Assembly (NCBI GenBank): GCA_012974425.1
Contig: JAAXQE010000095.1
Span: forward strand, 519 to 64,518
Length of the DNA: 64,000 nucleotides
Direction of reading: 5' to 3'
Source of the DNA: Geopsychrobacter sp.
GTDB taxonomy: Bacteria > Desulfobacterota > Desulfuromonadia > Desulfuromonadales > Geopsychrobacteraceae
The position numbers and the translations under genes were made by a program. The notes below the pieces were generated by a model. That model made no database searches. It saw only the letters and a list, made by a program, of their open reading frames with translations, and was not told the DNA's origin. How positions within the stretch are numbered: the stretch's first letter is position 1; each line of letters starts with the position of its first letter. Shown here in pieces: positions 7,394 to 50,033 of the stretch.

Positions 7394-7432
7394 TAGCTCG
7401 TCTTATCCAGGTTTAGAGGATAAGGCGAGCTA
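7394..7432. other. Strong intercistronic stem-loop between bamF and bamG
   Basis: TAGCTCGTCTTATCC-N9-GGATAAGGCGAGCTA, 15 bp with one G-U pair; no U-tract. Confidence 0.7.
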
Positions 7433-37934: not shown

Positions 37935-40259
37935 TTAGCCTCCTGCAACGAAGGAAATCAGACTGATTTCACTGCCGTCAGGAATTTCAATTCGGTCTTC
38001 TCCGGCAAGAATCATCTTGTCGTTGATGACAATAAGCAGGTTCGGATCGTCCAGGGTTTTAATCGACTCTGGCAGCTTGCTGCGCAGCAACTGGCGAAGC
38101 TCTCCCAGGTGTTCGACCTGCTCATCAATGATAATGCTCTGTTCCGGGCTGCCTGGGAGTGTGCAGGGCAGTTTGACCCTGATGCTGTAACCGGTGACGA
38201 TCTTCGCGAGCCGGGCGTGCCAGTCGAGTTCGGGCGCTCCTTCACGATTGAGTCCGCTAATCTTGTAAAAACGTTGCTTGAGAGCCTCAAACTGTTCCCT
38301 GTTGATTTTTTCCCCCTTGAAGGGCCCGACCGTGATTGGCTCATCGAACCAGCGGTCTGGCAGACTGTCATCTTCTGCCCGCAGCCCCAGGCGGTAGTTG
38401 ATCATCCGCTCCAGTCCGGTGATGTTGCGACCAATTTCGTCCAGTTTTTCGGCATCGAACGGCAACCGGGTCAGCTCATTGAGATGGTCGGAAAAGTCTG
38501 TCAGATCAGGGGTTGATGGCGAGTTGAACAGTTTGGTGTTGAAACGGCACATGCCGACCGAATCCCCGGCGGCAAAAGTATTTTCGCAGCGCCTGACCGC
38601 GTACTCCTTCCCCTCGTACGAGGTTGGTTCAGGGGAGACGACACCGCCGTAGAGGGCGGTTTTGAAGGCGGCATCATCGTTGATGCGGGCGTTAATCTCC
38701 AGGGTGGCCCGATTGCGCAGATGATCCATACCGCGGGTGGCAACCGCCAGCCCAAGGGCAAACGCCTTGAGAATCCGGGCGTCGTGAGGATCGGACTGGA
38801 ACAGCCCCTTGGAGGCCATACAGTATTTTAGTGCTTCTGCTGGATACTTTCCCTGTTCGACTGCACGGCTGGAGGTGGCGATAGTGTCGCCGAAACCTTG
38901 CCGTTTTGCCGTCAGGAACAGTAACTGCTCAATGACCGGATAGTTCCCCCAGCTCAAATCCAGTCCACCGGTGATCTGCTGATCGATGATACCGCGCTGA
39001 AAAAGTTCCATCGCCCAGGCGATGGCGCTGCCGGTGCTGGAGGCATCGAGCGCCAGATCGTTGATAATGTTGTTCAGTCGCAGAACCTGTTCCGGTTCCT
39101 TAATGCCGATATTCGGACCGAATTTGCCGACGGTGATGTACTCCGGGCCTTCGCCCTTGTCGTACTTGTCGAATTTTCCGTCGTTGTTGATACCGTTGTA
39201 GGTGCGTTGTTTGTGATGCTCCAGACTGCTCTGCTCTTTATCGTAACTGGCGTTACCGCTCAGACCGGTCAGAGCGCTGGCCCCCCAGCCGCCTTTACCG
39301 CCGGGAAGCATGTCGTTGTTAGCCCGGCAACCGACCGGGCACTGGAAACAGCGGCTCATGTTCGGTCGGTAGGGATCGAAGTTGTCGGCGTCGAGACTAT
39401 CGTGCCAGGTGGTCTCCTGGTTGTTCTTGGTGCCCATGGCGCAGAGAACCCGGCTCGGTTTGTAGAGAAAGGGCGTACCGACCTTTTTCAGCGCATTCTG
39501 CACTACGCTGGCAGACAGGATCTTTTTGCCAAGTTCCCGGTTTTTCTGTTTGTGTGCTGCAGAAAGTGCAAGCCCCGGCGGTTTGCCCTGAATCATGATT
39601 GCTTTCAGGTTCAACGAACCCATTTTGGCGCCACCACCACCTCTGGCCCAGATTGCTTTTTCTCCTGCCATGATACCGCTGCAGAGGACCTGGTTTTCAC
39701 CGGCACTGCTGATCCTCGCCATAGCCATATCTGTTCTTTCGTGGCAGTTAAAATCTCTCTCAATTGACTTGGTGAACTCGATGTTGTCCATGCCGTAATA
39801 GGGGCTGGCATCGATAAATCTGACTTGCTCCTGATCGATTTTTAGCATGGTCCATTGCGGATTACGACCATAGAGGACCAGATGGTCGTAGCCGTGACGT
39901 TTGAGATAGGTGGGGAAGAAGTCACCAGCGTTGCTGTCGAGGATCGCCCGGCTTTCCGGTGAACGGCTGGTGACGTTGCCGCGGGTAGCTGCCGGCATGC
40001 TGCCGGTTAGCACGCCGGCGCCGAAGATTAATGGGACTTCGGGGTCAAGGGCATCCATTTCTTCCTGCAGCAGGTTGTAGAGCAGGTACATGTTTCCGCC
40101 GCGCCCGGCCAGAAAATGCTGGACCGCGTCAAGCGGCAGGAAGCCTCGCTGGCTGCTGCGCCGTTCAAGGTCGACAAACAGCACCGCACCCTGGCTTGGG
40201 TATTGTGGTTCGGCATGCATCCGGTTGAGAAGTCGTGTAACCCGCTGTCTGATATCCAA
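37935..40259 (-). CDS. Tungsten aldehyde oxidoreductase (AOR)-family protein fused to C-terminal MoaD/ThiS-like domain
   Basis: GRGG, TSRSP, RGGGGAKMGSLNLKAI, CFQCPVGC, GPEY and RGMDH motifs; C-terminal beta-grasp domain ending ISFVAGG*. Confidence 0.88.
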   Translation of the reverse strand: MDIRQRVTRLLNRMHAEPQYPSQGAVLFVDLERRSSQRGFLPLDAVQHFLAGRGGNMYLLYNLLQEEMDALDPEVPLIFGAGVLTGSMPAATRGNVTSRSPESRAILDSNAGDFFPTYLKRHGYDHLVLYGRNPQWTMLKIDQEQVRFIDASPYYGMDNIEFTKSIERDFNCHERTDMAMARISSAGENQVLCSGIMAGEKAIWARGGGGAKMGSLNLKAIMIQGKPPGLALSAAHKQKNRELGKKILSASVVQNALKKVGTPFLYKPSRVLCAMGTKNNQETTWHDSLDADNFDPYRPNMSRCFQCPVGCRANNDMLPGGKGGWGASALTGLSGNASYDKEQSSLEHHKQRTYNGINNDGKFDKYDKGEGPEYITVGKFGPNIGIKEPEQVLRLNNIINDLALDASSTGSAIAWAMELFQRGIIDQQITGGLDLSWGNYPVIEQLLFLTAKRQGFGDTIATSSRAVEQGKYPAEALKYCMASKGLFQSDPHDARILKAFALGLAVATRGMDHLRNRATLEINARINDDAAFKTALYGGVVSPEPTSYEGKEYAVRRCENTFAAGDSVGMCRFNTKLFNSPSTPDLTDFSDHLNELTRLPFDAEKLDEIGRNITGLERMINYRLGLRAEDDSLPDRWFDEPITVGPFKGEKINREQFEALKQRFYKISGLNREGAPELDWHARLAKIVTGYSIRVKLPCTLPGSPEQSIIIDEQVEHLGELRQLLRSKLPESIKTLDDPNLLIVINDKMILAGEDRIEIPDGSEISLISFVAGG

Positions 40260-40308: not shown

Positions 40309-40995
40309 TCAATTTTGTCCAGGGGCGCCACATGAGGCGGCAGGCTTCATTTCCGCATCGGCACCAAAATCACCACCCGCATTGTTACCGAGCAGTTTTG
40401 GGCTGTACTTCTTGTAGGTGACGGTAATTTCCGCAAAGGGGACATCGGCAAAGAACCCGCGCACATGGACATATTCCATATGTCTTCGCTGGTCAGAATC
40501 GCAGGCATGGAAAATCGAATCATCCCGACCGTTGAATTCGAGCGGTTTGACCCGGAATCTGCTGCAGAGGTCCAGATTGAAGGCGGGGGTCGCCTTGACC
40601 CATGTCCCTTGCAGCCAGAGTTCGCAGAAGGCGTGCCAGCGAAACAGGTCACCGCCGTTCAGTTTTCTTAATCGGGGAGTGTTGAGATGGTTTTTCACAT
40701 CGGCAAATCCGAGTCGCGAGGGGATACCGCTCACCCGGCAGCAGGCTGCCAACAGCGCAGCTTTGGATATGCAGAAACCATAACCGCTGCGCAGAACGTT
40801 GCTGGCCCGATAGGTTTCCGGATCACCATAATCAAGGTAGGGCGTGTAACTTATGTCGTCGCGGATGCGATAATAAAGGGCTACTGCCTTGTCGATATCC
40901 GACTGTGAGGAACCGACGACGTCTTTCGCGTACTCCTGAATGACGCTGGCGTTACTGTCGACATATTCTGCACTCTGAAGAAACAGATGATCCAT
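40309..40995 (-). CDS. Transglutaminase-like cysteine protein
   Basis: GFCISKAALLAA, IPSRLGFADVKNH, WHAFCEL and WVKATPAFN motifs. Confidence 0.8.
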   Translation of the reverse strand: MDHLFLQSAEYVDSNASVIQEYAKDVVGSSQSDIDKAVALYYRIRDDISYTPYLDYGDPETYRASNVLRSGYGFCISKAALLAACCRVSGIPSRLGFADVKNHLNTPRLRKLNGGDLFRWHAFCELWLQGTWVKATPAFNLDLCSRFRVKPLEFNGRDDSIFHACDSDQRRHMEYVHVRGFFADVPFAEITVTYKKYSPKLLGNNAGGDFGADAEMKPAASCGAPGQN

Positions 40996-44612: not shown

Positions 44613-45554
44613 CTAGGTTTCAAGCGCCTTGACCAAGCTGCGTAAGGTCGTGTTGAAGGGCGTCTTTACCCCCGCTCGTTCGCCATATTCAATGATTTTT
44701 CCATTGATGTAGTCGATTTCCGTTTGTCGCTTCGCTTCGATATCCTGCAGCATCGAGGGCTTGTGGTGGCCAGCTTCCTTGATGTAGTCGATACATTCGA
44801 TGTAATAATCCGGCCCGAGCAACAGTTCATTGGCTCTGGCGACTCTGACCCCTTCTTTTAACAACGAGTTGACCAGGCCCATAACAATCGGATCGTTGAT
44901 AACTTCAAACATGGTCTTGCCGGTGACCGCGCAGACCGGATTCATGCAGGAGTTGTTGATCGTTTTCGTCCAGACCATGTTGCGGATCTGGTTGGTGTGG
45001 TGCGTGTCAAGGCCGCATTCGGTCAGAGCGTTACAGATTGCCTGAGCAGCGTCCTTTGAACCCGGATCAAGTTCTTGCAGATAGTGCGGGCGGTGATGGA
45101 AGGCCAGTTTGACCTTCGCCGGGCCCTCCAGGATGCAACCGTAGTTAACCACCGCGCGCATGACCTGTTTTTTACCGAGTCGTTCAGCCAGAACCTGCTC
45201 GGTGTCGATGCCGTTTTGCCAGCTGACAACGTAGCGTCCCGCGGTAATAAAAGTTTCCAGGGCAGAAGTGATGATCGGCAGCGCCGTCGCCTTCACTGTA
45301 ACGATCACGACATCTGGTGGATCGGCGGCCAGTTCATCAATCCGGGTCGTCGTCCTGGTCACCTTTGCCTGAAATTCATCAGCACCAGACAGGCTGATTC
45401 CCGGATTTAGCGCCGGCTCAAGCAGGCTGGTCTGAACATCGCAGAGCGTGACATCGTAACCTCCCCTGGCGAGGAACGCGGCAACGATGCAACCGACCGG
45501 ACCAGCGCCAACGACGGCAAATTTCTTTGGTTTGAAACTGTTGTTTTCCTGCAT
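44613..45554 (-). CDS. Ketopantoate reductase-family (PanE/ApbA) 2-oxoacid reductase, copy 2
   Basis: GAGPVG, SWQNGI, WTK...N and SMLQD...TEIDYING motifs; 313 aa. Confidence 0.85.
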   Translation of the reverse strand: MQENNSFKPKKFAVVGAGPVGCIVAAFLARGGYDVTLCDVQTSLLEPALNPGISLSGADEFQAKVTRTTTRIDELAADPPDVVIVTVKATALPIITSALETFITAGRYVVSWQNGIDTEQVLAERLGKKQVMRAVVNYGCILEGPAKVKLAFHHRPHYLQELDPGSKDAAQAICNALTECGLDTHHTNQIRNMVWTKTINNSCMNPVCAVTGKTMFEVINDPIVMGLVNSLLKEGVRVARANELLLGPDYYIECIDYIKEAGHHKPSMLQDIEAKRQTEIDYINGKIIEYGERAGVKTPFNTTLRSLVKALET

Positions 45555-45611
45555 GCCAGACTCCCGGTGTACAATGAGAATTGGAACTGAATCAAGGTAT
45601 CGTTGCAGGCA

Positions 45612-46067
45612 TTAGCCTGCATGGTTCCGATCGACCAGAATGCCGAATGAATCCGCATCGAGCAGCTTTAAATTGTTTTCCCGCAGGGTCGCTATGGCCT
45701 GATCAATTTCGCTGAAGCGGAAGACCATGACTGCGTTGTCCCGATTGGCGCCCGCCACTGCATACATATATTCAACATTGATTCTGGTGCCGAGAAACAG
45801 CTGCAGCAGATCAGCAAGACAGCCGGGCCGGTCGTCAATTTCGACCGCGACCACATCTTCCACCCGGGCTGGAATGTATTTTTCCATGATCACGCCGCGG
45901 GCTGCGGCGAGGTCGGACACCAGGATCCGCAGCACGCCAAAATCATGGGCCGAATCGCAGATGCAATGCGCCCGCAAGTTGATACCCGCGTCGCCCAGTG
46001 CCCTGGTGACGTCATGCAACCGTCCCGGTGAATTTTCAAGCGGGATGGAAAGTTGTTGTAATTTCAT
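45612..46067 (-). CDS. Tandem ACT-domain protein, copy 2
   Basis: QLSIPLENSPGRL, DRPGCLA and INVEYMYA motifs; RBS AAGGGAG before ATG 46067. Confidence 0.85.
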   Translation of the reverse strand: MKLQQLSIPLENSPGRLHDVTRALGDAGINLRAHCICDSAHDFGVLRILVSDLAAARGVIMEKYIPARVEDVVAVEIDDRPGCLADLLQLFLGTRINVEYMYAVAGANRDNAVMVFRFSEIDQAIATLRENNLKLLDADSFGILVDRNHAG

Positions 46068-46129
46068 GGGAAGCTCCCTTGTCAATAATCGGACCGATAA
46101 TCGGGCGCGGCATGCCTCGCCCGCGAAGA

Positions 46130-47071
46130 CTATTTCGGTTCCAGCGCCTTGACCAGACCCCGGATCATATTGTTGTAGGGGGTCGGAACGCCGGCTTGCA
46201 CACCGTATTCGACAATTTTACCGTTGATGTAATCAATTTCGGTGCGACGATTTGCCTCAATATCCTGCAGCATCGATGGTTTGTGCGCGCCGGCATTTTT
46301 TATGTAGTTGATAGCGAAAGGGTAGTAGTTCGAGCCCAGAGAAAATTCATTGATCCGGGCTACCGCGATCGCTTCCTTGATCAACGCATCGACCAGACTG
46401 AAGGTGATCGGATCGTTAATAACTTCAACCATGGTCATGCCGGTTACGGCACACATCGGATTCATGCTGGCGTTAAGGACCGACTTTCGCCAGACCATGT
46501 CGGTAATCTGTTCTGTGTGTTTGGTGTCAAGGCCGCACTCGGTCAGAACGTTGCAGATGGCGATCGCTGCATCCTTTGACTCCGGATCGAGTTCCTGCAA
46601 GTAATGCGGACGATGATGAAAAGCTAGGCGGATGTGGCAAGGACTTAGCGGCACGCAGCCAAAATTAACCACCCCGCGCATCACCGCCTTATTGCCCAGG
46701 TGCTGGGCAAGTTCCAGTTCGGTATCGATACCGTTTTGCCAGCTGATCACATAGCGTCCTTCGGCAACAAAGTCTTCCAGCGCAGAGGCAATCAGAGGCA
46801 GGGCCGTGGCCTTGACCGTGACGAAAATGACGTCGGGTGGATCGTTGATCAGGTCGTCAATATTGGTTGTGGTTCGGCTCACTTTTGCCTGCAGGTTGTC
46901 AACCCCTTCGAGGATGATTCCCGGCTCCATGGCCGGCGCCAGCAGTTCCGGTACGATGTCGCAAAGCGTGACATCATAGCCGCCTTTGGCCAGAAAGGCG
47001 GCGACAATACCGCCGACGGGACCGGCACCGATGACGGCAAATCTGGTTGGACGATAGTTGGTTTCAGCCAT
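46130..47071 (-). CDS. Ketopantoate reductase-family (PanE/ApbA) 2-oxoacid reductase, copy 1
   Basis: GAGPVG, SWQNGI, WRK...N and SMLQD...TEIDYING motifs; RBS AGGAG before ATG 47071; 313 aa. Confidence 0.85.
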   Translation of the reverse strand: MAETNYRPTRFAVIGAGPVGGIVAAFLAKGGYDVTLCDIVPELLAPAMEPGIILEGVDNLQAKVSRTTTNIDDLINDPPDVIFVTVKATALPLIASALEDFVAEGRYVISWQNGIDTELELAQHLGNKAVMRGVVNFGCVPLSPCHIRLAFHHRPHYLQELDPESKDAAIAICNVLTECGLDTKHTEQITDMVWRKSVLNASMNPMCAVTGMTMVEVINDPITFSLVDALIKEAIAVARINEFSLGSNYYPFAINYIKNAGAHKPSMLQDIEANRRTEIDYINGKIVEYGVQAGVPTPYNNMIRGLVKALEPK

Positions 47072-47164
47072 CGTGCTAATCTCCTTGTCCGGAACCGGTG
47101 GATGGATTGTCCAACAGGTTCCTGGAAACTCAGAACTCAATGAAAAGATCAGTTACAGTCGATA

Positions 47165-47605
47165 TCAGGTGTTCTCGAGAATCCCGAACGATTCGGCATC
47201 CAAAAGTTTTACCCCGTTGTCTAGCAGCAGCTGGATCGCCTGATCATTGTCGCTGAAGCAGAAAACCATCACTGCATCGACCGAAGAGGTTCCCGCGAGA
47301 GCGTACATGTAGTCGACGTTTATCTGTTTATCCATCAGCAGCTTGAGGATTTTGGCCAGACTGCTCGGGGTATCGGTGATTTGGGCGGCGACAACATCGT
47401 CGACCCTGGCCGGCAGCTGTTTCTTCATAATAATGCGTCGCGCCTTGGCAACGTCAGAGACCAGAATCCTCAAGACACCAAAACCGGAAACGTCGCAAAT
47501 TGATAAAGATCTCAGGTTGAGGCCAGCTTCACCGAGGGCCTGAGTTGCTTCATAGAGGCGTCCCGGCGAATTTTCCAGAAATATTGAAATCTGTTTCAGT
47601 TTCAT
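47165..47605 (-). CDS. Tandem ACT-domain protein, copy 1
   Basis: QISIFLENSPGRL and INVDYMYA motifs; RBS spacing favours ATG 47605. Confidence 0.85.
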   Translation of the reverse strand: MKLKQISIFLENSPGRLYEATQALGEAGLNLRSLSICDVSGFGVLRILVSDVAKARRIIMKKQLPARVDDVVAAQITDTPSSLAKILKLLMDKQINVDYMYALAGTSSVDAVMVFCFSDNDQAIQLLLDNGVKLLDAESFGILENT

Positions 47606-47626
47606 GACCATCTCCCTTGCCCGAGC

Positions 47627-47657
47627 TCCGGATCCGCCGCGTATCGACGGATCCGGA
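47627..47657. other. Stem-loop between iorB and the first ACT gene
   Basis: TCCGGATCCG-N11-CGGATCCGGA, perfect 10 bp. Confidence 0.6.
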
Positions 47658-47701
47658 TTTAAGTGATGTCGAACGACTGGACCAATGCGGTTCGATTTAG
47701 A

Positions 47702-48274
47702 TCAAGCCGCCGCGCCGCCGGCCAGAGCCTTTAAGTTGACCTCTCTCCCTTTGCCTTGCGAGAGTTGCTTAACAACGGCGGTAATGACTTCTTCAGTGAT
47801 CGGCAGCTGTTTCATGACTGTCCCGACCATCACCATATTGACCGCTTTGCCATTGCCGGCTTCGCGGGCGATCGAAAGGGCATCAATGCCCAGCGCTTCG
47901 GTGCAGACCGCGTCGATCTGTTGCTCCACATCGGCCGGGTAAATCGCCAGGCCAGCGGCCACAGTACTTGGGTTGATGGTCACCTTGTTGTAGACCAGCC
48001 GCCCTCCGGGCTTGAGGTAGTGGCTATAGCGCAAGGCTTCCAGCGGTTCGAAGGAGATCAGCAGGTCGGCGGTGCCGGGCATGACCACCGGTGAACTGAC
48101 CTGGTCGCCGATGCGGACAAAGCTGATGACGCTGCCACCACGCTGGGCCATGCCGTGCACTTCGTTCTGCTTGACGTCCATGCCACTGGCCAGAGCGCTT
48201 TCGGAGAGAACCTTGGAGGCCATCAGGACTCCCTGTCCACCGACACCGGCAATTACGATATTAAAGATTTGCAT
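47702..48274 (-). CDS. iorB: Indolepyruvate:ferredoxin oxidoreductase beta subunit
   Basis: IAGVGGQGVL, EVHGMAQRGGSV and FEPLEALR motifs; start at MQIFNIV (48274), overlapping the iorA stop. Confidence 0.9.
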   Translation of the reverse strand: MQIFNIVIAGVGGQGVLMASKVLSESALASGMDVKQNEVHGMAQRGGSVISFVRIGDQVSSPVVMPGTADLLISFEPLEALRYSHYLKPGGRLVYNKVTINPSTVAAGLAIYPADVEQQIDAVCTEALGIDALSIAREAGNGKAVNMVMVGTVMKQLPITEEVITAVVKQLSQGKGREVNLKALAGGAAA

Positions 48275-50033
48275 TGTTAGCTCCCTCCAGTTCGTGCATC
48301 GCGTCGAATTTACACATCTGTGTGCAGACGCCGCAGCCATTACAGATATTGGGGTCGACCCGTACGGTCTGCTTGTCGCCACTGCCGGTTAGTCCCAGTG
48401 CCATGCAGGCCACCCTGAGACAGGCGCGGCAACCGGTGCATTTGTCGGTCTCGACAGTCATGGCCGGTTTGCGGATTTTGTAACGCAGGATGCAGGGATT
48501 TTTGTCGATCAGCACATAGGGGCCTGGTGTTTCGAGACCTTTTTTGATTGCTGCTTCGGTCGCTTTCAGGTCGTAGGCATCCAGTTCAACGACGTTGTCG
48601 ATACCCAGCGCCTTGACCAGCGGGGCAATCTCGACCTGACGGGCGGGGAGGCCCTGAAGGGTTTTGCCGGTGCCGGGATTCTCCTGGCCGCCGGTCATGC
48701 CGGTGGTGCGGTTATCCATGATGATGACCAGGGCGTTGCCGGTGTTGTAAGCCATGCTGAGCAGGCCGGTCATCCCGGAATGGAAGAAGGTCGAGTCGCC
48801 GATAACGGCAACCGGTTTTTCCCGACCGCCGGCCATCTCGTTGACCTTGGCAATGCCGTGGGCGGCGCTGATGCTGGCGCCCATGTCGATACAGGTGTGC
48901 ATGGCGCCCATCGGCGGCAGTGCGCCCAGGGTGTAGCAGCCGATGTCACCGGAGACGAAGACCTTCAGTTTGCTGAGAATGGTAAACAGGCCGCGGTGCG
49001 CGCAGCTGGGACAGAACACCGGCGGACGCTGCGGCAGTCCTTCGACCGGGGCGGTTCCGGTTGCTACCGGCTGATCCTCGGCGGCAGAACGGATGATGTC
49101 GGTGTTGACCTCGCCGCAAAAAGAGATCTTGTCTTTGCCGACGTCAACGTTGATGCCCATGGCGCGGATCTGCTCTTCGAAGATACCGTCCAGTTCCTCG
49201 ACAATCATCAAACGATCGACCTTGCTGGCAAACTCGCGGATTTTGTTTTCGGGCAGCGGGTGGACCATGCCAAGCTTCAAAATCGAGGCGTTGGGGTAGG
49301 TCTCCTTGACGTGGTGGTAGGCGACCCCACAGGTGATAATGCCGAGCTCGGTATCCTTTAGTTCCACCCGGTTCAGTGGGCTGGTCTCGGCAAATTCCTT
49401 GAGACGCAGCAGGCGCTCTTCAATTTCAGCGTGCTTGATTCTGCCGAAGTTCGGTAACATGACATACTTCGGCACGTTCTTGTCCAGGTCGCGGATCTGC
49501 GGTTCGATCTTTTCCTGTTGCTCGACGATCCCTTTGGCGTGTGAAATGCGGGTTGTGGTCCGCAGCATCAGCGGGGTATCGAACTGTTCGGAAATCTCAA
49601 AACCGGCTTTGACGAAATCGTAGGCCTCTTGAGAGTCGGACGGATCAAGCATTGGAACCTTGGCGAACTTGGCGTAGTTGCGGCTGTCCTGCTCGTTCTG
49701 CGACGAGTGCATACCGGGATCGTCGGAGACCATCAGGATCAGCCCAGCGTTGACACCGGTCTGGGTCAGGGTCATCAGCGCATCGGCAGCCACGTTGACG
49801 CCAACGTGCTTCATGGTAGCGATGGTGCGTCCGCCGGCGATCGAGGCGCCGATGGCCGACTCGAGAGCGACCTTCTCGTTTGGAGCCCACTCGCAGTAAA
49901 CCTTACCGTGGCGGGCGACCTCTTCAAGGGTTTCGGTACTGGGCGTGCCGGGATAACCGGAGGCGAAAACCCCACCAAAGTCGGTGAAGCCCAGAGCGAT
50001 TGCTTCGTTGCCCGAGATTATTTTTTTCATCAA
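48261..50033 (-). CDS. iorA: Indolepyruvate:ferredoxin oxidoreductase alpha subunit
   Basis: GNEAIA, GYPGTPSTE, SSQNEQDSR, RPPVFCPSCAHR, TPP motif GDSTFFHSG...DN and C-terminal 2x[4Fe-4S]. Confidence 0.93.
   Translation of the reverse strand: MMKKIISGNEAIALGFTDFGGVFASGYPGTPSTETLEEVARHGKVYCEWAPNEKVALESAIGASIAGGRTIATMKHVGVNVAADALMTLTQTGVNAGLILMVSDDPGMHSSQNEQDSRNYAKFAKVPMLDPSDSQEAYDFVKAGFEISEQFDTPLMLRTTTRISHAKGIVEQQEKIEPQIRDLDKNVPKYVMLPNFGRIKHAEIEERLLRLKEFAETSPLNRVELKDTELGIITCGVAYHHVKETYPNASILKLGMVHPLPENKIREFASKVDRLMIVEELDGIFEEQIRAMGINVDVGKDKISFCGEVNTDIIRSAAEDQPVATGTAPVEGLPQRPPVFCPSCAHRGLFTILSKLKVFVSGDIGCYTLGALPPMGAMHTCIDMGASISAAHGIAKVNEMAGGREKPVAVIGDSTFFHSGMTGLLSMAYNTGNALVIIMDNRTTGMTGGQENPGTGKTLQGLPARQVEIAPLVKALGIDNVVELDAYDLKATEAAIKKGLETPGPYVLIDKNPCILRYKIRKPAMTVETDKCTGCRACLRVACMALGLTGSGDKQTVRVDPNICNGCGVCTQMCKFDAMHELEGANNANL

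Follow-up and report, generated by a model that had tools for sequence, protein, structure and literature searches.

The window analysed here, a stretch of 64,000 nucleotides on contig JAAXQE010000095.1 of the Geopsychrobacter sp. assembly GCA_012974425.1, encodes an enzyme of the aldehyde:ferredoxin oxidoreductase (AOR) family whose C-terminal tail is a MoaD/ThiS-type beta-grasp domain with a free C-terminal Gly-Gly (GG). The gene product is predicted to be a catalytically intact AOR-family tungstoenzyme, and the fused tail probably acts as a dedicated sulfur carrier, or as a recruiting handle, for tungstopterin synthesis. An earlier note on this DNA, made from the letters alone, had presented the fusion in a way that implied novelty. 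This part of it did not hold, as Iyer, Burroughs and Aravind (Genome Biol 2006; PMC1779556) had already reported this fusion family from Azoarcus. They also defined a class of MoaD genes that lie strictly next to AOR genes, and proposed that AOR-linked MoaD supplies molybdopterin (MPT) for the tungsten cofactor of these enzymes. The architecture is thus already known, and the instance in the window adds no new architecture.

The fusion is read as a single uninterrupted open reading frame (ORF) that closes with the codons GTT GCA GGA GGC TAA, giving a protein that terminates in Val-Ala-Gly-Gly. Its TTG start is aligned with the annotated start of AOR-1 from Aromatoleum aromaticum EbN1. An assembly or frameshift artefact was ruled out, since the same frame of 774 residues recurs in more than 100 protein clusters and in 80 loci. 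The clusters were recovered by a word-based search at 67–87% identity, and almost all of their members are exactly 774 residues long. The loci, to which all counts out of 80 refer, are the best 80 (59–85% identity) among 238 stretches encoding a relative in contigs from one genome per species. Across both sets, the window protein is colinear with its family over 100% of its length, including a clade-specific insertion and the tail, at 59–87% identity.

The assignment of the tail draws on profiles, structure models and conserved motifs. In the whole protein, the Pfam ThiS/MoaD family (PF02597) matches residues 707–774 with 21.9 bits, just below the cut-off of 22.5, and the match passes in a scan restricted to the last 104 residues (26.5 bits, E 9e-6). 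All 49 family tails that were compared match PF02597 (best E 8e-12), and the profile built from them finds Escherichia coli MoaD as its best match among solved structures (E 3e-4), in an alignment reaching the terminal GG. NCBIfam gives weak matches to moaD, moaD_arch and thiS, far under the equivalog cut-offs. We modelled the whole protein with AlphaFold2 from an alignment of 117 sequences (mean predicted local distance difference test score (pLDDT) 94.2; predicted template modelling score (pTM) 0.94). The order of secondary structure elements in the modelled tail is beta-beta-alpha-beta-beta-beta, and residues 692–774 superpose on E. coli MoaD (1FM0_D) with Z 10.7 and a root-mean-square deviation (rmsd) of 2.5 Å over 78 of 81 residues. 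In structural alignments, mycobacterial MoaD (Z 10.8) and E. coli MoaD rank first, followed by CysO, SAMP1 and Urm1. When modelled alone (pLDDT 88), the tail has SAMP1, MoaD, MOCS2A and CysO as its top Foldseek matches. The conserved columns of the tail are MoaD's own motifs, namely the Leu-Arg of the helix, the Asn of “avN” and the pattern “dGDxV....GG”. The last four residues have a pLDDT of about 45–51, and the extreme C-terminus is predicted to be flexible, as it is in MoaD.

Pfam thus recovers AFOR_N, AFOR_C and ThiS/MoaD in that order. Pfam, the profile comparison and the structure model agree with the earlier note that the enzyme ends in its own MoaD/ThiS-like domain with an intact GG, and the beta-grasp fold, on which that note had made its proposal depend, is borne out by the superposition on MoaD. 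The boundary given there (37935–38250) was set slightly too wide: the first approximately 20 residues (671–691) belong to the last AOR helix, leaving a beta-grasp proper of 83 residues. This helix ends near residue 689 and the first strand of the tail starts at 693, with a linker of about three residues that includes an invariant Thr-Gly.

The enzyme part appears functional judging from its sequence, with all cofactor ligands kept. Both AOR domains score well above their Pfam cut-offs (AFOR_N, 167.5 bits against 29.8; AFOR_C, 281.7 bits against 27). The [4Fe-4S] cysteines C304, C307 and C311 (CxxCxxxC) and the distal C571 are invariant or near-invariant across the alignment of 117 AORs; together with E373 and H513, they are invariant in the 65 rows of the family and near-invariant in 50 distant AORs. 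Residues 20–690 of the model superpose on the Pyrococcus furiosus AOR (1AOR) with Z 47.4 and an rmsd of 1.7 Å over 591 residues at 30% identity, and the body has the three-domain AOR fold by this match. Its closest solved structures are AORs sensu stricto, at about 30% identity. The Gly-rich insertion occurs in all 65 family rows, is missing from the distant AORs in the alignment and has the lowest pLDDT of the body (67–82). We also observed that the position following Glu-Tyr is Ile or Val in the fused clade and variable across AORs generally (Glu in 14 of 50). The six other AOR paralogues of the genome share about 24–28% identity with the fusion AOR.

The tail was compared across the family. 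The GG is followed directly by the stop codon in 69 of the 70 loci that have the 3' end, both glycines are invariant in the tail alignment, and every full-length member from the word-based search ends in GG. The sole exception is a GGGQ-stop in a gammaproteobacterial metagenome-assembled genome (MAG; L070, ~7400–7412), which may reflect faulty sequencing, a copy without activity or a form that requires trimming. The body averages 74% pairwise identity and the tail 53%, and the corresponding pN/pS values, computed for pairs at least 78% identical, are 0.15 and 0.28. The tail is thus faster-evolving than the body yet clearly constrained, the value of 0.28 indicating purifying selection.

These data also bear on a rival explanation, in which the tail is a structural or recruiting domain without sulfur chemistry, whose stable surface would let the enzyme dimerise or would dock a ferredoxin partner or cofactor-maturation proteins. 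The GG would then be kept since the extended tail plugs into a pocket of the partner, and not for thiocarboxylation. Such a role fits the roughly twofold faster evolution of the tail, the degradation of the “GD..PP” motif to “GSE..S” in the Desulfuromonadales clade, the failure to find MoaE in the genome, and the very short linker, which together with the pTM of 0.94 implies a fixed, packed domain. However, it leaves unexplained why the stop falls exactly after the GG in nearly all loci and why the glycines are invariant amid variable neighbours. In addition, beta-grasp domains that are not carriers have generally lost the GG terminus. We consider a tail without sulfur chemistry unlikely.

We instead favor a model in which a sulfur-carrier domain of the canonical MoaD type is permanently joined to the C-terminus of the AOR. 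Because the AOR is fused at the N-terminal side of MoaD, the carboxylate of the GG is free. By the chemistry of MoaD, ThiS and SAMP proteins, an E1 enzyme of the MoeB/ThiF type would adenylate the terminal Gly, and a sulfurtransferase would turn the adenylated Gly into a thiocarboxylate. The thiocarboxylate sulfur may then pass into the dithiolene of the two pyranopterins in the enzyme's own W-bis-MPT cofactor. Since four sulfurs are needed per AOR, the tethered domain would have to cycle as a sulfur donor or serve chiefly as a handle by which the MPT-synthesis machinery is brought to the nascent apo-enzyme. AOR-MoaD would in either case be a covalent version of an arrangement with one private ubiquitin-like protein (Ubl) per AOR.

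Parallels for this arrangement are found in the same genome (3.28 Mb in 327 contigs, 99.8% complete), which has seven AFOR_N genes, three ThiF-family genes and six ThiS-family matches. The latter comprise one true ThiS beside ThiF, the fused tail and four Ubls of 74–77 residues ending in GGG. Each of these four standalone Ubls (contigs C307, C316, C182 and C242; loci L103–L106) lies about 50–740 nt from an AOR gene. For example, contig C182 has the order radical-SAM/SPASM, AOR, a 238-residue ORF, Ubl, MoeB and TupBC-like tungstate ABC-transporter genes, and contig C307 has the order AOR, Ubl, MoaA and MOSC, with TupA-like, permease, ATPase and MoeA genes nearby. Counting the fusion, which takes this pattern to its covalent extreme, five of the seven AOR paralogues thus have a Ubl of their own. 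In Thermococcus kodakarensis, three Ubls, including the AOR-adjacent UblC (TK1065), contribute to tungsten-cofactor synthesis, and the authors propose a cognate specificity of Ubl for apo-enzyme (PMC11323500).

The 238-residue ORF between the AOR and the Ubl-MoeB pair (protein P0273; contig C182, 4931–5644, plus strand; L103) probably encodes about 200 residues. The ORF is conserved among relatives (14 of 26), and in one of them MoaE is encoded about 1.5 kb away from it. It has no Pfam match even at E 10, and the ESM Atlas returns hypothetical proteins only. We rejected P0273 as a divergent MoaE given this lack of a Pfam match and of any BLAST similarity to MoaE. The protein may represent a maturation factor of the tungsten cofactor that has yet to be described.

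The sulfur-carrier tail raised in the earlier note stands as the best-supported reading, given the conserved GG-stop, purifying selection, the MoaD positions and the four AORs paired with Ubls, one of them beside MoeB; what does not fit is that no MoaE is detectable. This and several further observations weigh against it. MoaE (PF02391) was not found in the genome by profile search nor by tblastn with the MoaE of three relatives. In none of the 80 loci does an E1 gene adjoin the fusion. The tail scores 16.1 bits against the cut-off of 66.15 for the moaD equivalog TIGR01682, which places it outside canonical MoaD by that model. The three-residue linker and high pTM suggest that the domain is packed on the enzyme, where it might be hindered in docking to MoeB or MoaE. 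Hosts with MoaE presumably possess a housekeeping MPT synthase, next to which the fused copy may be redundant. Finally, the literature that we searched holds no biochemical study of any family member, including EbN1 AOR-1.

The MoaE gap extends beyond this genome. Of 26 relatives, 22 gave no MoaE match, among them a closed genome of the same genus, and MoaC was present in 23 of the 26; the genome itself has MoaA, MoaC and two MoeA genes. A MoaE hidden in the genome was considered and rejected, as the best weak match (C324), an unrelated ORF, does not truly resemble MoaE. The cofactor clusters of the genome contain two small MOSC genes, in the orders AOR-Ubl-MoaA-MOSC and MOSC-MoeA. MOSC genes occur in 22 of the 26 relatives, in three of them alongside MoaE, and the single relative of the same family that has MoaE is without MOSC. 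The presence of MOSC and absence of MoaE is a co-occurrence among kin and not proof of a substitution.

One way to account for synthesis of the MPT dithiolene despite this gap would be a sulfur delivery that is independent of MoaE, in which the tail passes its sulfur to a small MOSC protein, to cyclic pyranopterin monophosphate (cPMP) bound in the apo-AOR, or to the tungsten as a terminal sulfido ligand. The distribution of MoaE, MoaC and MOSC just described is in keeping with it, and the authors of the T. kodakarensis study speculate that the MPT sulfur is added after the apo-cofactor binds its target enzyme (PMC11323500). On the other hand, gene content is its basis, and MOSC and MoaE occur together in some relatives. 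Many fusion hosts also have MoaE, examples being Rhodocyclaceae, Amphritea, Motiliproteus and a Geobacteraceae MAG. Beyond this genome, MoaE is encoded by four of five hosts, and the fusion thus occurs independently of the MoaE gap. We regard MoaE-independent delivery by the tail as improbable. It is similarly doubtful that, in MoaE-less Desulfuromonadales, AOR-attached and AOR-adjacent MoaD-type carriers in general use such a route via MOSC or apo-AOR-bound cPMP. If this were true, however, the AOR-MoaD fusion could serve as a “Rosetta stone” for an enzyme-specific, in situ sulfuration of the tungsten cofactor.

In Desulfuromonadales, the conserved gene order around the fusion is IorA-IorB, ACT, PanE-like, ACT, PanE-like, TRAP DctPQM, Usp, transglutaminase-like, AOR-MoaD and alpha/beta hydrolase. 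In Rhodocyclales, the neighbors are a two-subunit 2-oxoacid:ferredoxin oxidoreductase, a flavin mononucleotide (FMN)-dependent 2-hydroxyacid dehydrogenase, an ADP-forming acyl-CoA synthetase and a PaaK-like ligase. Both gene settings suggest a common role in the oxidation of aldehydes from the catabolism of 2-oxo or 2-hydroxy (aryl) acids. The downstream convergent EtfAB genes (etfBA) and a membrane iron-sulfur oxidoreductase were rejected as functional partners, since they are not conserved with the fusion, which they accompany in one of 80 loci. The transglutaminase-like neighbor is present at 14 of the 80 loci, and nearly all of these are the Desulfuromonadales-type loci closest to the window. 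It is a lineage-specific neighbor, and its action on the Ubl tail is an unproven candidate link. An Rfam search of the window returned no molybdenum- or tungsten-cofactor riboswitch and no other Rfam element. The coordinates of these features are given in Table 1.

Table 1. Features of the AOR-MoaD fusion gene and its surroundings in the window, and small MOSC genes elsewhere in the genome.
Feature	Position	Strand	Basis or remark
AOR-MoaD fusion gene, whole	37935..40259	−	774 codons, TTG start, TAA stop; ORF list and translation
C-terminal Gly-Gly	37938..37943	−	Sequence; TAA stop abuts at 37935–37937
MoaD-type beta-grasp, residues 692–774	37938..38186	−	PF02597, profile against PDB, structural match
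AFOR_C domains 2 and 3, residues 241–684	38208..39539	−	Pfam PF01314, E 1.4e-83
Gly-rich insertion, ~48 residues (~320–368), between CxxCxxxC and GPEY motifs	39156..39302	−	Alignment
AFOR_N, pterin-binding N-terminal AOR domain, residues 25–225	39585..40187	−	Pfam PF02730, E 3.9e-49
Transglutaminase-core (Cys-protease fold) gene, 50 nt upstream of the fusion	40309..40995	−	Pfam PF01841, E 4.9e-18
IorAB, ACT, PanE-like, ACT, PanE-like, TRAP transporter string	44613–50033	−	Neighborhood compared with loci L023–L041, L078 and L082
Small MOSC gene	contig C307, 9112–9432	−	Cofactor cluster
Small MOSC gene	contig C13, 8723–9040	+	Cofactor cluster

This neighborhood speaks to a further alternative, also raised in the earlier note, that the tail is a donor for Ubl-type conjugation. 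In a reaction resembling that of SAMP or TtuB, the E1-activated C-terminus of the AOR would be ligated to lysines of other proteins or of the AOR itself, with the effect of cross-linking or regulating the enzyme. MoaD-type Ubls such as SAMP1 and those of T. kodakarensis are sulfur carriers that also form conjugates, for which an E1 alone suffices (PMC11323500). SAMP1 is also the top Foldseek match of the tail, and the gene directly upstream in Desulfuromonadales has the transglutaminase fold, which is used by enzymes that form or cleave isopeptide bonds. However, this upstream gene is missing from most of the family, and we know of no precedent for an enzyme of 85 kDa acting as the conjugated “modifier”. 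No E1, E2-like or JAB gene was seen among the annotated neighbors between 26.6 and 50 kb of the window or in the recurrent annotated neighbor clusters of the 80 loci, in which MoaE and MoeA likewise do not travel with the fusion; ThiF and JAB domains were absent from the same two sets, and no genome-wide search for JAB was made. The conjugation donor thus found no supporting context, with no E1 or JAB gene nearby, and we judge it highly improbable.

Beyond this genome, the hosts of the family clusters belong to Desulfuromonadales (Geopsychrobacter, Geothermobacter and Malonomonas), Oceanospirillales (Motiliproteus and Amphritea) and Rhodocyclales (Aromatoleum/Azoarcus and Sulfuritalea), and the 238 species-level genomes with a relative include further groups besides these three. 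In an exhaustive search of a library of 50%-identity clusters, the family essentially corresponds to one cluster; the next full-length AORs in that library share about 40% identity, have about 620–630 residues and are without the tail. Several family members carry the NCBI name “MoaD/ThiS family protein”. Two loci binned as Thermoplasmatota archaea (L085 and L092) carry the bacterial-type fusion of 774 residues at about 62–63% identity, reflecting either horizontal transfer or binning error. Searches with the tail profile matched, among longer proteins, solely AORs of about 771–784 residues or their fragments, and the tail type thus exists only as a fusion to the AOR clade of the 774-residue family. 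A standalone version was considered and dismissed: the sole short match (P0122, 113 residues) starts within the C-terminal helix region of the AOR and is a fragment call.

The fusion bears on how tungsten and molybdenum cofactors are targeted to particular apo-enzymes. For T. kodakarensis, it was suggested that particular Ubl sulfur carriers serve particular tungstoenzymes (PMC11323500), and no genomic hint of a physical interaction between carrier and client is stronger than a conserved covalent fusion of AOR and MoaD. The genome illustrates well how “one Ubl per AOR” can go together with an undetectable MoaE, and bears on MPT synthesis without MoaE. As A. aromaticum EbN1 has a family member and a published deletion strain, it could be a convenient test system.

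Compared with known systems, the body shares with P. furiosus AOR (1AOR) its fold, the [4Fe-4S] cysteines, the Glu and the His, to which the fused clade adds the C-terminal beta-grasp and, following the Cys motif, the insertion of about 48 residues. With E. coli MoaD (1FM0 chain D), the small subunit of MPT synthase, the tail shares the fold, the terminal GG and the motif positions; identity is only about 20–22%, however, and the tail is not a free protein and belongs to a genome with no detectable MoaE. The AOR-linked standalone MoaD or Ubl proteins (Iyer et al., 2006; aorD/aorE of A. aromaticum; UblC, TK1065, of T. kodakarensis) are likewise GG-ending beta-grasps tied to one AOR. The standalone Ubls of this genome are separate proteins of 74–77 residues of a shorter, archaeal-MoaD-like type ending in GGG, whereas the fused tail is covalently attached, longer (83 residues) and most similar to canonical MoaD of the E. 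coli type. In MoaX of Mycobacterium tuberculosis, a fused MoaD-MoaE, a MoaD domain is also joined to a functional partner protein (PMC4326299). The GG of MoaX is internal and cleavage is required for activity, while the GG of the AOR fusion is already C-terminal and would need none.

The nearest described relative is AOR-1 of A. aromaticum EbN1 (formerly Azoarcus sp. EbN1; CAI09166/Q5P0J8), the Azoarcus fusion protein of Iyer et al. (2006), which, like the window protein, has 774 residues, is colinear, combines AFOR_N, AFOR_C and ThiS/MoaD and ends in GG. The representative of the 90%-identity cluster to which it belongs shares 68% identity with the window protein. The two differ in host, the window deriving from a Desulfuromonadales relative and EbN1 being a denitrifying betaproteobacterium. 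They also differ in gene setting: the fusion in the window is accompanied by IorAB, ACT/PanE-like pairs, a TRAP transporter, Usp and the transglutaminase-like gene, and EbN1 AOR-1 by an FMN 2-hydroxyacid dehydrogenase and a 2-oxoacid:ferredoxin oxidoreductase. At the C-terminus, the window protein has the motif GSEISLISFVAGG, compared with the more canonical GDRVTLVPIIAGG of the EbN1 type.

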